In this document: piece by piece, positions 35,666 through 63,396 of the stretch | Layout: every line of letters starts with the position of its first letter | Position numbering within the stretch: the stretch's first letter is position 1 | Sequence record: OK570374 | Strand: one strand, 5' to 3' | Length of the DNA: 64,000 nucleotides | Source: Escherichia phage UoN_LG358_1 | Translations under genes and position numbers: made by a program | The notes under the pieces: model-generated | Told to the model about the DNA's origin: nothing | The model's input: only the letters and a program-made list of their open reading frames with translations | Database searches by the model: none

Positions 35666-36621
35666 TCATTATTAAGTTCAGCTGTTAAACGCAAGAACAT
35701 ATACATCACATGAAGTTCAGTATTTGAGGCAACTCCTTTGTACTGGTTGTTTTCACCAATAATTTCGTACATTGCCATTATACCAGGTCCTTTAAGCATA
35801 GAGTATAATTCTTCGGCGAGTTTACCTACAAACCAAGAGTAATCAGTAGAATATTTTGGAGCCAAAGCCCTAAGCTGTTTAACATCTCGATTTTTTAGAG
35901 CATCAATCACATCTGAAATTGAACTAGAGTCTTTAGTTACAATACTCAGAATTCCAGCATCCAGAACGCCTTTGGACGAATACATATCAAGTTCGCCAAT
36001 AGTCTTACGAAAATCTGGAAAGTTCTTTTTAACTAAAGCAGCAACAACTTTTAAATCGGCGATTTCAATGTTTTCATTTTTACATATTTCAACCATACGA
36101 CGAATCATCTGTTTCATCATTGTTGTACGGTCTTCTTCTGTTGCTTGGCCAAATTTAATTACTCGGCAACGCGAACGAAGTGGTTCAATAATGCCGTCAA
36201 TATTGTTGGCAGTAATAATAACAGAACAGTTACTTGAATATGCTTCTAAAAATGAACGCAAATGACGCTGAGATTCAGCAAGTCCAGAACGGTCAAATTC
36301 GTCAATAACAATAACTTTTTGACGACCTTCAATAGAAGCAGAACTTGCAAAATTAGTTAATGGCCCACGGACAAAATCAATTTTACAATCTGAACCATTC
36401 ACAAACATCATATCAGCATTTGTGTCATTACACAAAGCTTTTGCTGTAGTTGTTTTACCTGTACCTGGTGAAGCAGATACCAGAATCATATGAGGGATTT
36501 TACCGCTTTTAACAATTTTATTCATTGTTTCGCGGTCGGCGGCGGGAAGGATACATTCTTCAATTGTAGAAGGACGATACCGTTGTTCAAGGATGTGTTC
36601 TTTTTCGTTAATTGTAATCAT
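35656..36621 (-). CDS. 44: Clamp-loader ATPase gp44 (RFC-like)
   Basis: 321 aa; Walker A SPGTGKTT, Walker [12 protein letters not shown] motif. Confidence 0.9.
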
Positions 36622-44678: not shown

Positions 44679-45013
44679 TTTGCCGCCTTAACAATTTTGA
44701 GGTCAACAAATCCTTTCTTGCGCTGATTTTTCATTTTACGAATAGTGCGTTCGGAAATTTCAGGTTTTTTATTTGTTGGAATACCAAAAGCATCTAGATT
44801 AAATTCATCAATAATATAACAAACAATCAATTCACGAATTCGAGCTTTTCCGATCTTCTGGTCGTTCTCTTTCATAGTTCCATGAAGAGCAGTTTCCCAT
44901 TCATCTAAAATTTCAGGCGTGACAATAACAGATTTGAATTCACCATCAACTTTCATTTCTTCAACTTTAGGGAAAACAAAAGAGTTCAGAACGTTTTTGA
45001 TAGCTTGTGACAT
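44675..45013 (-). CDS. Hypothetical protein
   Basis: 112-aa ORF. Confidence 0.45.
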   Translation of the reverse strand: MSQAIKNVLNSFVFPKVEEMKVDGEFKSVIVTPEILDEWETALHGTMKENDQKIGKARIRELIVCYIIDEFNLDAFGIPTNKKPEISERTIRKMKNQRKKGFVDLKIVKAAK

Positions 45014-45123
45014 GTTATTTTCCTCATTGGTCGTTAGATGTTTGACATAGAGATTTTAATTTAAAATCCCTATAGCAAACTCAACTCATCTGTATGTTTT
45101 TAGCATTATGAACAATTTTGAAA

Positions 45124-45309
45124 TTATCCTTCGACATACCAACCTTTATCTTGCCACGCTTCGCCTTTATACCAACGAGTCATATCATAACCGCCATTGT
45201 CGCGAACCGTTCCATTATCATAAATGAAATACTCATCTGATGTGAAATATTCATGACGAATACACTTGCCGGTAATTTTTGAAGTCATCACAGCTTCTTG
45301 GTAAGTCAT
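45124..45309 (-). CDS. Hypothetical small protein
   Basis: 61-aa ORF. Confidence 0.35.
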   Translation of the reverse strand: MTYQEAVMTSKITGKCIRHEYFTSDEYFIYDNGTVRDNGGYDMTRWYKGEAWQDKGWYVEG

Positions 45310-45575
45310 TATGCACCTCTTACAGCATCAATCAATTCTCGTACCACAGTATCCAATTCACTTGTGTATACATCCGGAACCAGAGCTTTAATACAATTAC
45401 TCATTCGTCCCGGGTAGTGTTGAGCATGATTGAGCGAAACATCTGTCCGACAACCCTTCGCCCGGAAAACAACTTCTTCGTCAGAGATTTCAACTGTGAG
45501 TGGCACTTTATCGGTGGATGAAGTACGAATAATCATTTCATACTTAATCATACTCGTTTTAGATACGATAATCAT
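45309..45575 (-). CDS. Hypothetical protein
   Basis: 88 aa from ATG at 45575 (GGAG SD); track extension is promoter read-through. Confidence 0.45.
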   Translation of the reverse strand: MIIVSKTSMIKYEMIIRTSSTDKVPLTVEISDEEVVFRAKGCRTDVSLNHAQHYPGRMSNCIKALVPDVYTSELDTVVRELIDAVRGA

Positions 45576-45594
45576 CTTTAACTCCATTTGTGTG

Positions 45595-45635
45595 GTATGA
45601 GGTAATAGTAACACAGTTTTTGGAGGATGTAAACG
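45595..45635 (-). promoter_or_regulatory. T4-type early promoter (cassette family B)
   Basis: gtaaac at 45629-45634; about 45-bp block identical to 62383-62427. Confidence 0.55.
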
Positions 45636-45644
45636 GTTGATATG

Positions 45645-45673
45645 AAAGAAAAGAGGGACCGCTAGGGTCCCTC
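45645..45673 (-). terminator. Rho-independent terminator after nrdH
   Basis: GAGGGACC-GCTA-GGGTCCCTC hairpin plus T-run (minus strand). Confidence 0.6.
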
Positions 45674-45725
45674 GGATTTAAAGTCAATATATTATATTAG
45701 AATGATGCAAGAATGGGATAGAGTA

Positions 45726-46037
45726 TCACTCTTCGTCCAGGTTATAACCTAAGACGCTAAGTTGTTCTAATAGGTGGGATTTGTTGCGTATTCTTTGGTT
45801 GTTCAAAAAGACGATAGGATATCGTAGAGCTAAACTCGGATAACTACCTACACGTTTAGCCGCTTCAGTAATTCGGTCTCTGTCGTAGACAAATCCAACT
45901 TCGTTTTCGTTTGGAATTATTACATCGTAAAAAGCATAAGGGATATTTTCATCATCCAAAGTTTTACGAATTGAATAGCAGGCCGGACACCGGCCTACTG
46001 TCTCAGGAATTCCGTATATTTCTATTTTTGCAGACAT
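45726..46037 (-). CDS. nrdH: Glutaredoxin-like protein (NrdH-type)
   Basis: 103 aa with CPAC redox motif; adjacent to the anaerobic RNR genes. Confidence 0.65.
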   Translation of the reverse strand: MSAKIEIYGIPETVGRCPACYSIRKTLDDENIPYAFYDVIIPNENEVGFVYDRDRITEAAKRVGSYPSLALRYPIVFLNNQRIRNKSHLLEQLSVLGYNLDEE

Positions 46038-46483
46038 CTTATTTCTTCAATAAGCGCTTCAATTTGTTTAAGTTTATCTTCAATTGAAGCTTTGGAGGTT
46101 GATTCAATTATGTATTTCTCGTCAACTTCATATAGAACATCTTTGTCGTAGAAGTTGAATAAACAGCTTTGGTCAAAATCGTCCGCGTCAAAAATACGCT
46201 TATCATGACTAAGAATTCTCATGACTTCAGCATGTTCACCATACCCATTTAATTCTAGTACTTTGAATGCGCCGCCCTTGAGCTCGTCATAAAGTTTTTC
46301 ATCACCTTTAGCCCGGCCCGCAGATAACCATTTGCTTACTTCCGCCGGGTTATAAGCGTACCATTGACCTGCTTTGAATTCAGTAATCATATTAATATTG
46401 TCCAAAGAAAATGAAAGCATAAAGAGCAGGGAACTCTTCACCAAAACGCTCAATGTAACTGTACATGTACACTTGAAGTTCAT
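46022..46483 (-). CDS. Hypothetical protein (start uncertain)
   Basis: ORF between nrdG and nrdH; the first ATG overlaps the nrdG stop (ATGA). Confidence 0.35.
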   Translation of the reverse strand: MNFKCTCTVTLSVLVKSSLLFMLSFSLDNINMITEFKAGQWYAYNPAEVSKWLSAGRAKGDEKLYDELKGGAFKVLELNGYGEHAEVMRILSHDKRIFDADDFDQSCLFNFYDKDVLYEVDEKYIIESTSKASIEDKLKQIEALIEEIRCLQK

Positions 46484-46971
46484 GAATCCAAGGATAGTGA
46501 ATCTGCATTTAACCATTCCTCATTGTGTTGTTTCCATAGCCGCTGGTTATCTGAACCACGCCATGGCTTATCAGTTGGGTTATCTTGTTCATATTTACCA
46601 TCAATAATAACATCAATGTATTTTAGCAATTCAAGGTGCTTGATGTCTTCAAACTTGTAACCAGTCCACATCCAGATATCTTTTTTGGGAAAACGCGCTT
46701 TAACCCATTTAACTAGAGCTTCAATATCTTCTCTGTTGCCTCGATAAAGAGGGTCTCCTCCAGTAAGAGTAAGTCCTTGGATGTATGGTTTTGAAAGATG
46801 CTCTGCGATTTCTTTTACTGTATTAGAGTTAAATGTCTCACCGTTGCAAGGGTTCCAAGTGCTTTTATTATAGCATCCTTGGCATTTATGAATACAACCC
46901 GTAACGAAAAGAACGACCCTGCAACCAGGGCCATTCACAAAATCGCATGGATAAATTCTATCATATTTCAA
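46480..46971 (-). CDS. nrdG: Anaerobic ribonucleotide reductase activating protein (radical SAM)
   Basis: 163 aa; CDFVNGPGCRVVLFVTGCIHKCQGCYNKSTW cysteine cluster. Confidence 0.9.
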   Translation of the reverse strand: MKYDRIYPCDFVNGPGCRVVLFVTGCIHKCQGCYNKSTWNPCNGETFNSNTVKEIAEHLSKPYIQGLTLTGGDPLYRGNREDIEALVKWVKARFPKKDIWMWTGYKFEDIKHLELLKYIDVIIDGKYEQDNPTDKPWRGSDNQRLWKQHNEEWLNADSLSLDS

Positions 46972-48784
46972 TGTGTTTTGTCCTATGCATGATTTCTTTA
47001 TTCTTACCTAGGTTAAATCCTCGATCAGAAGGATTACCGAGATATCCGCAAGTCCTTCTAATAGTATTCATCTTCTTAGGATTAGTCTCGCCACAAACAG
47101 TACATTCAAATCCGTTTTCAGTTGGTTTCATTTCATGAGTTGACCCGCAACTCAAACATTTATCAACTGGCATATTAACACCAAAATAATCCAGTTTTTC
47201 TACAGCATAATCCCAGACTGCTTCAAGAGCTTGAATATTTCTCTTCATATCAGGCAATTCAACATAAGATATGTGTCCACCCTTTGCAATGAAGTGGTAT
47301 TTTGCTTCTCGGTCAATTTTTTCAAATGGAGAAATTTTTTCTTCAACTGAAACATGGAAGCTATTAGTATACCATCCTTTGTCGGTTACGCCTTTGACTA
47401 TTCCGTGTTCGGCTGCGTCAATTTTACAGAAACGATAACATAACGATTCTGCCGGGGTACTATAAAGGCTAAAAGCATATCCTGTTTCTTCGGTCCATTC
47501 GCGGAGATAATCATTCATGTGTTTAAGCACTAATTCACCGATGCCTTTGTAGGTCATTAGTTCAAGCTCGTGAATTCCGATATATCCAAGCGAAATAGAA
47601 CTTCTACCATTTTTAAACAACTCAATGATTTCATCATCCGGTTTCATTCGAACGCCAAAAGCTCCTTCTTGATACAGAATCGGAGCCACAGAAGCTTTTA
47701 CACCTTTTAACGATTCAATACGAAGCAGCAGCGCGTCTTTACAAATCTTCATTCGGCAGTCTAGTAGATGCATGAGCATGTTTAAATCTGTTTTGCCGTT
47801 GACCTGAGAATCCAAAGCTATACGAGGAAGATTTAATGTAACAACACCTAAATTATTGCGTCCGTCAAGAATAAATTTACCATCGGAATTTTTCCATGCG
47901 CTCAAAAAGCTTCTGCACCCCATTGGAGATACAGGAATAGGAGAACCAGTAATCTTACGATTATTTTTGGCGCTAATAATATCGGGATACATTCGCTTAG
48001 AAGCGCATTCTAAAGCTAGTTGTTTGATATCATAATTTGGGTCTTCACTGTGGAGATTTAAACCTTCTTCAACGAACATAACCAATTTAGGAAAAATTGG
48101 AGTAATTCCATGACGACCTAATCCTCGAATACGATTTTTAAGAATAGCTTGTTGAATTAGTTTTTCTTCCCAAGATGTCCCCATACCAAATGTAATGGTA
48201 ACGAAAGGCGTTTGGCCGTTAGAGCTGAAAAGTGTATTAACTTCATATTCATATCCTTGAAAAGCATCGAATACATCTTTTTCTGTTTTCTCTTGAGCAT
48301 ATAATTCAGCGTCCGTAATATGATATCGGCGAGCGTCTTCGATATGTTTGTTGAAAGTTGCTTCTACATAAGGAGCTAGTACTTGGTCAACATTAGCAAA
48401 TGTAGTTCCACCATATTGATGAGAAGCTACTTGAGCTGTAATTTGAGCCATTACGGCAGTTGCTACACCGATTGAATTTGATGTTTCAATTTCAGCATTA
48501 CCGAGTTTAAACCCATTTTGAAGCATTCCGGCTAAATCTACTAAGCAACAGTTAGTAAACGGAAGCGATGGTGAATAATCCATGTCATGAAAATGGATAA
48601 TTCCTTTATCATGAGCATCTAGTATAGAGACTGGAATGACCTTACGGGCGACATGTTTAGAAACAATGCCGGCCATAAGGTCACGTTGGGTGGGAAATAC
48701 CCGCGAATCTTTATTCGCGTTTTCATTTAAAAGGTCTGTATTAGTTCTGTCAAACAGACCTTTGATTTCGGTTTCAATTGTCAT
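46961..48784 (-). CDS. nrdD: Anaerobic ribonucleoside-triphosphate reductase NrdD (uninterrupted)
   Basis: 607 aa; C-terminal glycyl-radical motif RRTCGYLGNP and Zn-ribbon CLSCG..CTVCG; no intron-like interruption. Confidence 0.92.
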   Translation of the reverse strand: MTIETEIKGLFDRTNTDLLNENANKDSRVFPTQRDLMAGIVSKHVARKVIPVSILDAHDKGIIHFHDMDYSPSLPFTNCCLVDLAGMLQNGFKLGNAEIETSNSIGVATAVMAQITAQVASHQYGGTTFANVDQVLAPYVEATFNKHIEDARRYHITDAELYAQEKTEKDVFDAFQGYEYEVNTLFSSNGQTPFVTITFGMGTSWEEKLIQQAILKNRIRGLGRHGITPIFPKLVMFVEEGLNLHSEDPNYDIKQLALECASKRMYPDIISAKNNRKITGSPIPVSPMGCRSFLSAWKNSDGKFILDGRNNLGVVTLNLPRIALDSQVNGKTDLNMLMHLLDCRMKICKDALLLRIESLKGVKASVAPILYQEGAFGVRMKPDDEIIELFKNGRSSISLGYIGIHELELMTYKGIGELVLKHMNDYLREWTEETGYAFSLYSTPAESLCYRFCKIDAAEHGIVKGVTDKGWYTNSFHVSVEEKISPFEKIDREAKYHFIAKGGHISYVELPDMKRNIQALEAVWDYAVEKLDYFGVNMPVDKCLSCGSTHEMKPTENGFECTVCGETNPKKMNTIRRTCGYLGNPSDRGFNLGKNKEIMHRTKHIEI

Positions 48785-49866
48785 TTTAAGCCTTTCTTTA
48801 AATAATAGACATAATCTTCAAGCCATTCTATTGTCAATAGAATTTCTTCGGGGCTTTTTAAATTAGCCTTTATTTCTTTAAAAGAATTTGTCATTATTTT
48901 AGAAGTATGTTCAATTTTAATAGTTTCTACTAAATTTAAAGTCGAAAGTCTCTCAATGTAAGACTTTTTATCTTCAATTTGTAATTTAATAATCTCGCCA
49001 GATTTAACAAATTTAGAACAGCTTCCACGATTAGAACCAAAGAATTCTTCGACTTCGGAATTTGACGCAAACTTTTTACCAGTTTCCACATGTTGAAACT
49101 TCCATCGCTGACGTCGAATTGAAGGATGTAGTGTCCATCGATCTTTTATAATATCAAGTTTTCCATTTAATAAATTTGTAATATGAGACGATGAAATATC
49201 ATTTTTTCTTGCAAATTCAGCTTGATTTATTACTTCGATTTCGCACGAATTTAGTTCATCCCAAATTTTAAATTTAGAAACAGAATGATACACTGATAAT
49301 TTTTCTTCCTTTGAGCGACCAAATTGCCAGCCAGAATCTAAATACTTTTGAACATCATCGGGTTTAACATATTTGGTTTTTTGACCAATTTTATACATCA
49401 TCGGCCATGAAACATGCTCATTTCCTTTGTCAAAATTCATCCATCGAGCAATATCTTCTTCTGTTAAATCATCGAAGCAGTTAGGGTTAAAATGCCCGCC
49501 AATTTGTTTGTTTAACCACATAGGGTCTCGTAATACGTCATTAGCAAGTTGCATTTCCATTTCAGCCATTAAAGTTTTACCCCAAGTTGGATACCATCCA
49601 ACAATTAGATATTCTTTAGGCTTTATACCATTTTCCAACATCGAATTCAATTCATTTGATGAAGATGTATAAGTCTTCCAATCTGATTCTTCAAATCCTT
49701 TTTTAGGACCGCGTTTAAACGTTGAAGGGGCAGCTTTAATTCTTTTCCAAATCTTTTTAGCGCCTACATACTTTTTACCGTCTTCAAACGTGATTACATA
49801 AACAAATCCAATATTATTTTTAATATCTGTTTCTTCAAAAACAGACCAATGACCATAATCTGACAT
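48781..49866 (-). CDS. Free-standing GIY-YIG homing endonuclease (Seg-like) upstream of nrdD
   Basis: 361 aa; N-terminal GFVYVITFEDGKKYVGAKK (GIY...YVG) motif; basic C-terminal half; ATGA overlap with the nrdD start. Confidence 0.75.
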   Translation of the reverse strand: MSDYGHWSVFEETDIKNNIGFVYVITFEDGKKYVGAKKIWKRIKAAPSTFKRGPKKGFEESDWKTYTSSSNELNSMLENGIKPKEYLIVGWYPTWGKTLMAEMEMQLANDVLRDPMWLNKQIGGHFNPNCFDDLTEEDIARWMNFDKGNEHVSWPMMYKIGQKTKYVKPDDVQKYLDSGWQFGRSKEEKLSVYHSVSKFKIWDELNSCEIEVINQAEFARKNDISSSHITNLLNGKLDIIKDRWTLHPSIRRQRWKFQHVETGKKFASNSEVEEFFGSNRGSCSKFVKSGEIIKLQIEDKKSYIERLSTLNLVETIKIEHTSKIMTNSFKEIKANLKSPEEILLTIEWLEDYVYYLKKGLK

Positions 49867-49896
49867 TATAAATACATCCTTTTTACTAATATTATG

Positions 49897-49904
49897 ATGT
49901 ATTT
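49897..49904 (-). promoter_or_regulatory. Possible T4-type late promoter (TATAAATA on minus strand)
   Basis: Plus-strand tatttata about 30 nt upstream of the GIY-YIG start codon. Confidence 0.4.
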
Positions 49905-49932
49905 ATACAATAAGCTAAACCATTAATTTATC

Positions 49933-50097
49933 TCAATTATATAGCCAATATGTCCTTGCCCATTTCTTACGGTTTCGGATTTGAGTTTTAGTCGGCTTAG
50001 TAGAGAACCACCAGGAAATTTTATATCCATCGTCAAAATCAAAAATTAGATGCCATTTAGACATCTGATTTGATACATACTTTAATTCAGTTTTCAT
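49933..50097 (-). CDS. Possible 54-aa protein (weak)
   Basis: Short ORF with Trp-rich C-terminus; no clear SD. Confidence 0.25.
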   Translation of the reverse strand: MKTELKYVSNQMSKWHLIFDFDDGYKISWWFSTKPTKTQIRNRKKWARTYWLYN

Positions 50098-50104
50098 TTA
50101 AATA

Positions 50105-50524
50105 CTAGCTGGAAAAAGATAGCTGTTTTTCTAGAGCTCGAATATAATCCGCTGCTGCTTGCATTATATTAGCTTCATACCCATTAACACGGATTTTCGC
50201 GGCTTCAAGATGGTCTGTTATTGGTTGTCCGTCGTCAAAAAATCCTAAAGTAACCGCTGGAAATAAATCAGAATCATATTCTTCGATTTCTTTAAGTTGA
50301 TACATACCGTCTTCACAGTAAAAACACCAGAACCAACTATCGCGAGCGTTAATATGAAGATAAGGGCCGTTTTTAATTTTGACAGAAGTGATACCGTCTT
50401 CATGGCCGTTTTCTTTGTCAACAGTAATAACTTTAAAAACAGTTCCGACTTTCATTTCAGGAAATTGTTCCAGAAGTTCTTCATCGTCTTCAATAATTTC
50501 AAAAACTTTATTCACTAAACTCAT
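50105..50524 (-). CDS. Hypothetical acidic protein
   Basis: 139 aa from ATG at 50524 (1 nt after the upstream stop); track start is TTG. Confidence 0.45.
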   Translation of the reverse strand: MSLVNKVFEIIEDDEELLEQFPEMKVGTVFKVITVDKENGHEDGITSVKIKNGPYLHINARDSWFWCFYCEDGMYQLKEIEEYDSDLFPAVTLGFFDDGQPITDHLEAAKIRVNGYEANIMQAAADYIRALEKQLSFSS

Positions 50525-50525
50525 A

Positions 50526-50885
50526 TTAAATTCCATCACTTTTAGTATTAGGAGTATCAAATAATGATATTACACAATCCGGATTTCCAGTTATATGACA
50601 GCTTGTAAACAGTGCCCAACGGCTTAAAGCCCATTTACCTAAAATAATTTTAGACCTTTTGTTGGATTCTTCAACGCTGAGAGTCATATTAAGTCTTGGA
50701 AAATAAACAGAAGTGATACCAGTGATTTCTCCAGTGTCAGTAAAACTTGTGTAGCATTTGGAAATAACAAGTTCATCACCAGGGATAACACCCATATCTC
50801 TGAAATAGTCTATCACATCTCCAAGCTCATGCTTGACTTTAAAAACTTCCGGTTTTACTGTAAGTTTAAGTCCAGTTAAATTCAT
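50526..50885 (-). CDS. Hypothetical protein
   Basis: 119-aa ORF; GAGGG SD. Confidence 0.45.
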   Translation of the reverse strand: MNLTGLKLTVKPEVFKVKHELGDVIDYFRDMGVIPGDELVISKCYTSFTDTGEITGITSVYFPRLNMTLSVEESNKRSKIILGKWALSRWALFTSCHITGNPDCVISLFDTPNTKSDGI

Positions 50886-51008
50886 TATTACCCTCGAAAT
50901 CTAATATCTCATTCATCATGGGTTCATTATAACATGGTTCTTCATCCGTGTAAACTGGTTCTTCCGGTTCTGGCTCGACGGTTTCCCATCTGGCGGCCCA
51001 CCAAGGTT

Positions 51009-51669: not shown

Positions 51670-51889
51670 AAAGTTTCACCATACAATCACCGTATTTCCA
51701 CTTTGACATAACCTTTTCGCCGGTAGAGTAAGTTACTTCAACCTTAGCTCGGTGATTTTTTATTTGAACAATTCGGCCAGTTTCAAGACTGCCGTAGCCG
51801 TAATAAAGCGCAATTATATCATTAACGAAAAGCTCCTTTCCGCGATAATCACGCATATAATCTTGACCTTCAACCATGCATTCTATCAC
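51662..51889 (-). CDS. Hypothetical small protein
   Basis: 75-aa ORF overlapping its neighbours. Confidence 0.4.
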   Translation of the reverse strand: MIECMVEGQDYMRDYRGKELFVNDIIALYYGYGSLETGRIVQIKNHRAKVEVTYSTGEKVMSKWKYGDCMVKLYD

Positions 51890-52149
51890 CGAAAATACTC
51901 GCGCAATTTATCAAAACCACCAATATAACTTCCATCTGGAGCAAATATTTGCGGTACGGTAAGACCGATTTGTGTATCTCTTCCAAGACGAGTCAAAAGT
52001 TCAGCAATAATTTCATCGTCAAATACACCTTTTTCTGGCATGATATTGATGAATTCATATGGTTGTTTTTTAACATCCAGAAGACGTTTAGCGTTATCAC
52101 AGAATACGCATTTATGAATGTTGCTGTCGTAACCGAATACTTTGAACAT
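51886..52149 (-). CDS. nrdC: Thioredoxin/glutaredoxin NrdC
   Basis: 87 aa; near-identical to recalled T4 NrdC (MFKV.GYDSNIHKCV.CDNAKRLL.VKKQP.EFINIMPEKGVFDDE.IAELLT.LGRDTQIGLT.PQ.FAPDGS.IGGFD.LREYF). Confidence 0.88.
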   Translation of the reverse strand: MFKVFGYDSNIHKCVFCDNAKRLLDVKKQPYEFINIMPEKGVFDDEIIAELLTRLGRDTQIGLTVPQIFAPDGSYIGGFDKLREYFR

Positions 52150-63355: not shown

Positions 63356-63396
63356 CTCATTAGTTAGTAATAGTATTTATAAATGTAGTACTATTA

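Follow-up and report, generated by a model that had tools for sequence, protein, structure and literature searches.

A homing-type GIY-YIG endonuclease gene in the place of gene 49 (endonuclease VII) in S16-type T4-like phages

Endonuclease VII (endo VII), the product (gp49) of gene 49 of bacteriophage T4, is the textbook junction resolvase and is needed for packaging of T4 DNA. It combines a zinc-binding beta-beta-alpha-Me nuclease domain (PF02945) with a dimerisation domain (PF09124), and its structures are deposited as PDB 1EN7, 1E7L and 2QNC. The second described system to be compared here is that of the Seg endonucleases (SegA-G) and I-TevI; SegE has given its name to a Pfam domain, and genes of the Seg type lie between host genes, which they leave intact. 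We analyzed a stretch of 64,000 nucleotides (nt) from Escherichia phage UoN_LG358_1 (record OK570374; hereafter the window), in which the gene 49 locus has merged with a Seg-like GIY-YIG endonuclease gene. The gene is a 361-amino-acid (aa) open reading frame (ORF) on the minus strand (48781-49866, ATG start) that holds the gene 49 slot and encodes a GIY-YIG nuclease, two helix-turn-helix (HTH)-like modules and a gp49-like C-terminal helix.

Petrov et al. (2010; PMC2993671) describe gene 49 as essential in T4 and state, in a single sentence, that the need for gp49 appears to be circumvented by 'putative alternative nucleases', named RB16ORF270c and 65ORF061w, in RB16 and phage 65. Both phages lack gp49 and carry members of the family described here, RB16p243 (58% identity) and 65p046 (31%), the former located exactly where RB43 has gene 49. 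RB16ORF270c and 65ORF061w are probably these same two genes. F-CphI of cyanophage S-PM2 (PMC6083498), a homing endonuclease whose catalytic motif is that of Endo VII, is another case of endonuclease VII and homing endonucleases exchanging modules in T4-like phages; there the Endo VII nuclease domain was recruited into a homing enzyme, whereas here a homing-type nuclease would have taken the Endo VII gene. Outside phages, the eukaryotic, structure-selective GIY-YIG nucleases SLX1 and At-HIGLE resolve Holliday junctions (PMC9071465), which offers a functional precedent only, the superfamily being in common and the accessory domains different.

The window is assigned to an S16/STP4-a-type Gelderlandvirus, a T4-like phage, with 99.8% identity to Salmonella phage STP4-a and 98.3% to S16 (Straboviridae, Gelderlandvirus) over positions 45000-51000. 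T4 has the gene order pin - 49 - nrdD, with a 4-nt overlap between the end of gene 49 and the start of nrdD. The window order pinA - small ORF - 361-aa ORF - nrdD matches this slot (pin - X - nrdD). An earlier reading of the letters alone (the sequence-only reading) had the ORF abutting nrdD; it does, and it also overlaps it, the TGA stop and the nrdD ATG sharing an ATGA (48781-48784, minus strand) in the same junction as that of T4 gene 49 and nrdD. The last codons of the ORF (AAG AAA GGC TTA AAA TGA), which carry the nrdD Shine-Dalgarno (SD) sequence, resemble those of T4 gene 49 (AGA AAG AGT TTA AAA TGA).

Pairs of related phages in which one carries gene 49 and the other the ORF were found in three genera. 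Within Gelderlandvirus, CGG4-1 (pinA - gene 49 - ... - nrdH) has gene 49 at the position of the ORF in the window; a 3572-bp segment with nrdG, nrdD, the GIY-YIG ORF and a DUF7279 ORF (46491-50062, minus strand) stands in place of 543 bp with gene 49 in CGG4-1, between flanks that are 93.6-94.3% identical. Within Dhakavirus, JS98 (gene 49) and FB (ORF) are near-identical on both flanks, with identity ending right after AATAAATACC, in the leader hairpin arm, and resuming at TGAGGAAATCGCTTAAATGA, the last six codons plus stop of gene 49. In FB the replacement thus begins in the leader hairpin and takes in all of the gene 49 coding sequence except its last six codons, which persist, with the stop, 3' of the ORF's own stop. 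Within Pseudotevenvirus, RB43 has the order nrdC - 49 and RB16 the order nrdC - ORF, with a spacing of 34-35 nt in both. Taken at the level of sequence, the comparisons show the ORF to be an allelic occupant of the gene 49 slot that uses gene 49's 3' junction with nrdD.

The breakpoints relative to CGG4-1 have features of their own. The right one (50063) falls within the DUF7279 ORF and a terminator-like hairpin (50066-50048), and about 20 nt from the left one (46490) a 15-nt palindrome (46457-46474, core TGTACATGTACA) lies just downstream of the nrdG stop.

Presence in one and absence in another of otherwise near-identical genomes (CGG4-1/S16-type, JS98/FB, RB43/RB16) is what is seen for Seg genes. 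The sequence-only reading had likened the ORF, with a late promoter of its own, to Seg-type endonuclease genes. On this account it would be an ordinary Seg-type gene placed next to, and targeting, nrdD, gene 49 having been lost or relocated independently. The ORF does lie directly 5' of nrdD in the S16-type phages, MHG19, RB16, avDM2 and the metagenomic P0024 contig, and seg and mob endonucleases are known to target nrdD and nrdG (PMC2988022). The same slot is, however, occupied by the ORF in phages without nrdD (phiR1-RT, FB, Bp7 and the 167-kb metagenomic P0002 contig), which associates it with the gene 49 slot and not with nrdD, and the order pin - ORF recurs in phiR1-RT and the P0002 contig. 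Seg genes are inserted between host genes without removing any, and this was not the case here: the ORF replaces the coding sequence of an essential gene, borrows its leader and carries a piece of its protein. Since, in addition, the leader and 3' end are those of gene 49, no gene 49 is found elsewhere in the genome, and absence of gp49 from 45 of 45 listed carriers over several genera (below) cannot be coincidence, we regard the ordinary Seg-type account as very improbable.

The supposed promoter of the ORF proved to be part of a more elaborate leader. A T4-type late promoter consensus, TATAAATA, precedes the ORF by 33 nt from the ATG, as the sequence-only reading had noticed, at 49900-49907 (minus strand) and not at 49897-49904, a displacement of 3 nt. 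T4 late transcripts begin about 6 nt downstream of the late-promoter motif, and the late transcript would be expected to start near 49894. Over the whole window the motif shows no enrichment (5 copies against 7.4 expected, only 2 of the 5 on the minus strand), and its significance derives from its context, a 66-nt leader and the 5' arm of a rare inverted repeat, not from its frequency. The inverted repeat forms a hairpin (49867-49907, minus strand) with a perfect 12-bp stem and a loop of 17 nt. Its 5' arm TATAAATACATC (49896-49907) has the promoter motif as bases 1-8, and its 3' arm GATGTATTTATA (49867-49878) ends at position -1 of the AUG and masks part of the SD sequence AAGGA (49877-49881, 10 nt from the AUG), the 3' half of which lies within the stem. 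Only two spaced perfect inverted repeats of at least 12 bp occur in the 64 kb, this one among them. The sole other minus-strand copy of the motif (63374-63381) lies within the thymidine kinase gene, in its 3' portion; it precedes rI.1/rI homologues (S16 ~53.5 kb) and may be a late promoter for rI.

A late-promoter core in or just before the 5' arm of a stem that masks the ribosome-binding site (RBS) was found upstream of the ORF in the S16-type phages, phiR1-RT, FB/Bp7, MHG19, avDM2, the P0025 contig and, weakly, RB16, and the same leader module precedes the true gene 49 in CGG4-1 and T4. All these leaders have an ATAAATA-type core, and their 3' arm either reaches to a few bases from the AUG or overlaps it; their stem sequences differ, so the pairing has been kept by compensatory change. 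In Dhakavirus the ORF and gene 49 share one leader sequence as far as the promoter. The comparisons thus show, as far as sequence can, that what had been called the ORF's own promoter is a leader of the gene 49 type, with the late promoter inside an RBS-masking hairpin, and the ORF has both the slot and the regulation of gene 49.

Late transcripts starting at the predicted site would lack the 5' arm, and at the sequence level the ORF therefore has the layout of a hairpin-gated late gene. Hairpin-gated late translation has been described for I-TevI-III, segB, mobE, soc and e (PMC2988022), and the same review cites a gene 49 paper (its ref. 60) among late genes embedded in early regions; late-promoter and hairpin control is, together with patchy presence in close relatives, the likeness of the ORF to I-TevI, segB and mobE. 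Scans for sigma-70-like promoters (10 found against 16 expected) and for MotA-box middle promoters returned none inside or next to the ORF. It follows that nrdD must be served by transcripts that read through the ORF, and transcription through the ORF gives the hairpin gate a purpose. On early and middle transcripts reading through to nrdD, the 3' arm would be paired over the RBS and the ORF would stay untranslated; late transcripts, starting inside the hairpin and free of the 5' arm, would allow its translation.

The encoded protein is of the homing type. The motif GFVYVITFEDGKKYVGAKK occupies aa 20-38 of the ORF, with GFVY (Y23) and KYVG (Y33, G35) as its GIY...YIG elements, and lies in a GIY-YIG nuclease domain (aa 9-122; 49501-49842, minus strand) that matches Pfam SegE_GIY-YIG (PF19835, E = 2.3e-33). 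The GIY-YIG similarity claimed in the sequence-only reading, for which a profile search had been proposed, was borne out by this match, by the GIY-YIG alpha/beta fold match and by a full-length match to PHROG 7363 ('homing endonuclease'). Residues Y23, Y33, G35, K37, K38, E102 and N119 are invariant across 43 family members; E102, N119 and the two lysines are candidates for the catalytic Glu, Asn and basic residue of the superfamily (E75, N90 and R27 in I-TevI). The middle region (aa ~191-320; 48907-49296, minus strand) contains two strand-helix-turn-helix modules of the type of DNA-binding 'beads' seen in phage homing endonucleases; these HTH modules, typical of site-specific homing enzymes, are conserved in the family, and a nuclease domain joined to small DNA-binding modules is the arrangement of Seg proteins. 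With 361 aa and a GIY-YIG catalytic domain, the protein differs from T4 endonuclease VII (157 aa), of which it lacks the Cys4 zinc site, the beta-beta-alpha-Me domain and the dimerisation domain; PF02945 found no match in the ORF (control gp49, 73.5 bits), and a profile of the short family forms found none among PDB sequences. In public records its product goes under 'hypothetical protein', 'homing endonuclease' or 'TevII-like homing endonuclease'.

A relic of gp49 was identified at the C-terminus. The family alignment terminates in an amphipathic helix, LLTIEWLEDYVYYLKKG (aa 343-359; 48790-48840, minus strand), which aligns with endonuclease VII residues 82-98 (IDYLEWLESLLTYLKAD). Its hydrophobic face is the best-conserved part of the C-terminal third: all short forms have W348 and Y352, and nearly all have Y355 and L356. 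When 21 short forms were compared by hhalign with four gp49 sequences, exactly the segment of the gp49 82-98 helix was picked (P = 0.01). The relation is clearer in three metagenomic relatives, P0023, P0024 and P0025 (46-54% identical to the ORF), which run from the helix into a full PF09124 domain (45-59 bits, cut-off 22). P0025 matched gp49 with E = 2e-19 and the T4 endonuclease VII chains, over residues 84-157, with E = 1.4e-14. The fused genes sit in this slot as well, either immediately 5' of nrdD or following nrdC, and the long form was found in none of the cultured phages of the searched collection.

Because the long relatives keep the C-terminal dimerisation domain of endo VII (residues 84-157), the family is shown by its sequences to have arisen as a chimera, in which a GIY-YIG nuclease with DNA-binding modules replaced the zinc/beta-beta-alpha-Me nuclease domain, and the last ~17 residues of the ORF are likewise shown to be a helix inherited from gp49. 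The likeness to T4 endonuclease VII thus comprises slot, leader type, last codons and helix 82-98. Either the short forms, the window's included, subsequently lost the dimerisation domain, or the long forms may be secondary recombinants that arose via the common helix.

Two observations concern these relatives. In phiR1-RT and TG1 (g078) the tblastn alignment of P0025 reaches residue 383, past the annotated stop, and in phiR1-RT the ~51 nt beyond the ORF stop suggest a further decayed gp49 C-terminal remnant downstream. In long-form contigs nrdD is broken up by other endonuclease genes (contigs L019, 11497-14732, and L021, 4981-6423), one I-HmuI-NUMOD-like and one NUMOD4/HNH_3.

No gene 49 was detected elsewhere in this phage type. 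A tblastn search with gp49 of CGG4-1 against the window and S16 positions 1-150000 (nearly the whole genome) gave nothing better than E = 0.05-0.13, against E = 4e-106 for the positive control, and the S16 annotation lists no endo VII. The best match in the window (36199-36372, E = 0.05) lies within clamp-loader gene 44 and was rejected as spurious. The sequence-only reading had noticed that no ORF between nrdD and nrdC has the Cys/His signature of endonuclease VII and had proposed a genome-wide search for gene 49; the observation stands, and the search extends it to the rest of this phage type. That reading had, however, treated the absence as a matter separate from the GIY-YIG ORF. As the ORF itself sits in the place of gene 49, the two are, on the sequence comparisons above, one phenomenon.

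Mutual exclusivity was examined by a tblastn census in which a chimera of the ORF and gp49 served as the query against 50,697 phage records. It yielded 1482 places in 1480 records, with zero places spanning both halves of the query. All 45 listed records that carry the ORF (54-100% identity) have a single place and hence no gp49. These listed carriers include 13 records of the S16 type, the Dhakavirus phages FB, Bp7, E33, 04086, PSD9, LQ5, TH15, PSD2001 and ABTNLS3, the Tegunavirus phages phiR1-RT and TG1, and MHG19, Ac42, vB_EcoM_005, CPRSA, CPRSB, RB16, leE, Cronuts, KLB1, KLB21, KP13MC5-1, avDM1, avDM2 and avDM5.

The leader and ORF also form an island of near-zero divergence among S16-type phages (48781-49932, minus strand). 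Over its 1152 nt the window has 0 differences to S16, 0 to STP4-a and 3 to Melville. The flanks are far more diverged among S16-type phages (nrdD 1.2-2.4%, the DUF7279 ORF 4-5%): between the window and S16, nrdD has 27 differences (1.5%) and the 165-nt DUF7279 ORF 7 (4.2%), and between the window and Melville 42 (2.3%) and 8 (4.9%). At the nrdD rate ~17 (S16) and ~27 (Melville) differences would be expected in the island, an estimated Poisson probability of ~1e-7 to 1e-8 per comparison. The edges are sharp, with the nearest differences at 48770 and 49934. This pattern indicates that the unit of leader and ORF was exchanged among S16-type lineages after their divergence, and boundaries of exchange at the unit's own ends are predicted by conversion driven by an endonuclease. 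The sequence patterns thus support an ORF that is, or recently was, mobile. The DUF7279 ORF (49933-50097) is the most diverged stretch among S16-type phages.

An alternative account would have the ORF as a fully domesticated analogue of endonuclease VII that is no longer mobile, its patchy distribution being due to ordinary homologous recombination during co-infection. Such domestication agrees with a slot, a leader and a 3' junction that are all gene 49's, with the strict exclusivity with gp49 among the listed records and with the existence of fusions to the endo VII dimerisation domain. It does not agree with the identity island: the ends of the island match those of the leader-ORF unit to within 2-11 nt, its divergence is 8-15 times lower than that of either flank, and neutral recombination is not expected to put both boundaries at gene ends. 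The conserved HTH modules, typical of site-specific homing enzymes, also speak against loss of mobility, and we consider this account improbable.

The reading that we prefer, with a probability of roughly 0.55, is that the coding sequence of gene 49 gave way to a homing-type GIY-YIG cassette, which probably provides the late branch-cutting function. The carriers lack endo VII and gene 49 is essential in T4, which makes the ORF protein the most likely provider of late branch cleavage; the function is deduced from the replacement of and exclusivity with gp49 and from the fusion to the endo VII dimerisation domain in relatives. A mobile cassette consisting of a Seg/I-TevI-like GIY-YIG nuclease and HTH-type modules would have displaced the endonuclease VII coding sequence in its slot, and its protein would then most likely carry out the late cutting of branched DNA that packaging requires. 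Having assumed an essential role, the element would have made itself indispensable. To judge from the sequence patterns, the unit may still move among genomes, most likely by homing into gene-49-bearing relatives. A more detailed version, in which the cassette invaded gene 49, kept the leader and at first the dimerisation domain, now resolves branches for packaging with a catalytic fold that is not known to serve this purpose in any phage, and still drives into gene-49-bearing relatives, is offered tentatively, with the odds leaning somewhat against all of its parts holding together.

The main rival to replacement with takeover of function is a purely selfish homing endonuclease whose cassette homes into gene 49, destroying it, the protein having no role in phage DNA metabolism and endo VII being dispensable or compensated for by the terminase nuclease, by host RuvC/RusA or by reduced branching. 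Defects of T4 gene 49 are suppressible by mutations that lower recombination. The domain architecture typical of homing endonucleases, the sporadic distribution among close relatives and the recent transfer to which the low-divergence island points would all be expected of such an element. So would the apparently damaged copies in Bp7, vB_EcoM_005 and CPRSA/B, none of them accompanied by gp49. A mere destroyer of an essential gene should not, however, persist in at least six genera and 45 listed records, 0 of 45 with gp49. Nor should its ORF be full length with predicted catalytic residues invariant in 43 divergent members, the gp49-derived helix (in long forms the whole dimerisation domain) be conserved instead of decaying, or the late-only expression control of gene 49 be kept through compensatory stem changes. 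We judge the purely selfish account less likely than a takeover of function.

Several points nevertheless weigh against the reading that the cassette took over the work of gene 49. The Bp7 copy is annotated as two ORFs (record L015, 3501-4438), the vB_EcoM_005 copy is shortened to 324 aa and those of CPRSA and CPRSB are split, all without gp49; if these apparently damaged copies are not sequencing errors, neither nuclease is strictly required there. The window protein, with an I-TevI-like catalytic domain joined to I-HmuI-like modules, is laid out like a homing endonuclease directed by sequence, and it lacks the PF09124 dimerisation domain; characterised GIY-YIG homing enzymes act as monomers, whereas junction resolvases are dimers. 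For every member of the family the function is inferred from sequence. Homology of the helix is weak when judged from the short forms alone (17 columns at the above hhalign P). The energy of the leader hairpin is by itself unremarkable (z = -1.2 to -1.6), and because of these weak z-scores the argument for the hairpin relies on rarity, position and covariation. Finally, the phage 65 homologue lies outside the gene 49 slot and has no hairpin.

All genes of the region are coded on the minus strand, in the order nrdC (51886-52149), ..., a 49.2-like gene, a 49.1-like gene, pinA (Lon protease inhibitor, 50105-50560; in T4, gene 49's upstream neighbour), the 54-aa DUF7279 ORF between pinA and the leader, the 361-aa ORF, nrdD (46961-48784, 607 aa), the activase gene nrdG (46480-46971, TTG start), an ORF without assigned function and nrdH (45726-46037). 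The sequence-only reading was right that nrdD is uninterrupted: the Pfam NRDD match spans profile positions 1-562 of 562, and an Rfam scan of the whole window gave zero matches, hence no group I intron was detected. T4 nrdD, by comparison, is split by an intron and annotated as joined, with I-TevII inside the intron. The ORF between nrdG and nrdH (46022-46516, minus strand; PHROG 11904, core aa 43-164) is kept in CGG4-1, and its start is annotated differently in S16, STP4-a and Melville. The pinA gene is present in the window and missing from STP4-a, the closest database relative (99.8% identical elsewhere), which annotates just a 33-aa ORF at its place; S16 and Melville have no alignment to window positions 50035-50481 either. 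The S16 genome carries many other homing endonuclease genes. The split region of the topoisomerase II large subunit contains one, and an I-TevIII-like gene separates prohead core genes; another is at the SegE position upstream of a uvsW annotated as three ORFs, one is in a split nrdB and one at the mobE position between nrdA and nrdB.

In the accessible papers our literature search found nothing on S16-type or Gelderlandvirus phages without endonuclease VII, and as far as we can tell that literature does not contain the retained leader, the relics of gene 49, the long fused forms, the census of exclusivity or the island of identity. Cultured T4-like phages, partly in commercial use (the S16 type together with five or more further lineages), manage without endo VII and have in its exact place a nuclease of a different fold, which databases label 'homing endonuclease' or 'hypothetical protein'. 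Should the protein resolve branches, the GIY-YIG junction processing seen with SLX1 would have a counterpart in phages, and this would be the first phage or bacterial GIY-YIG nuclease to process junctions; the annotation of ~90 phage records would be corrected. It would also be a natural instance of a selfish element displacing a non-orthologous essential enzyme, and would show such an element becoming essential by replacing the gene that it invades.

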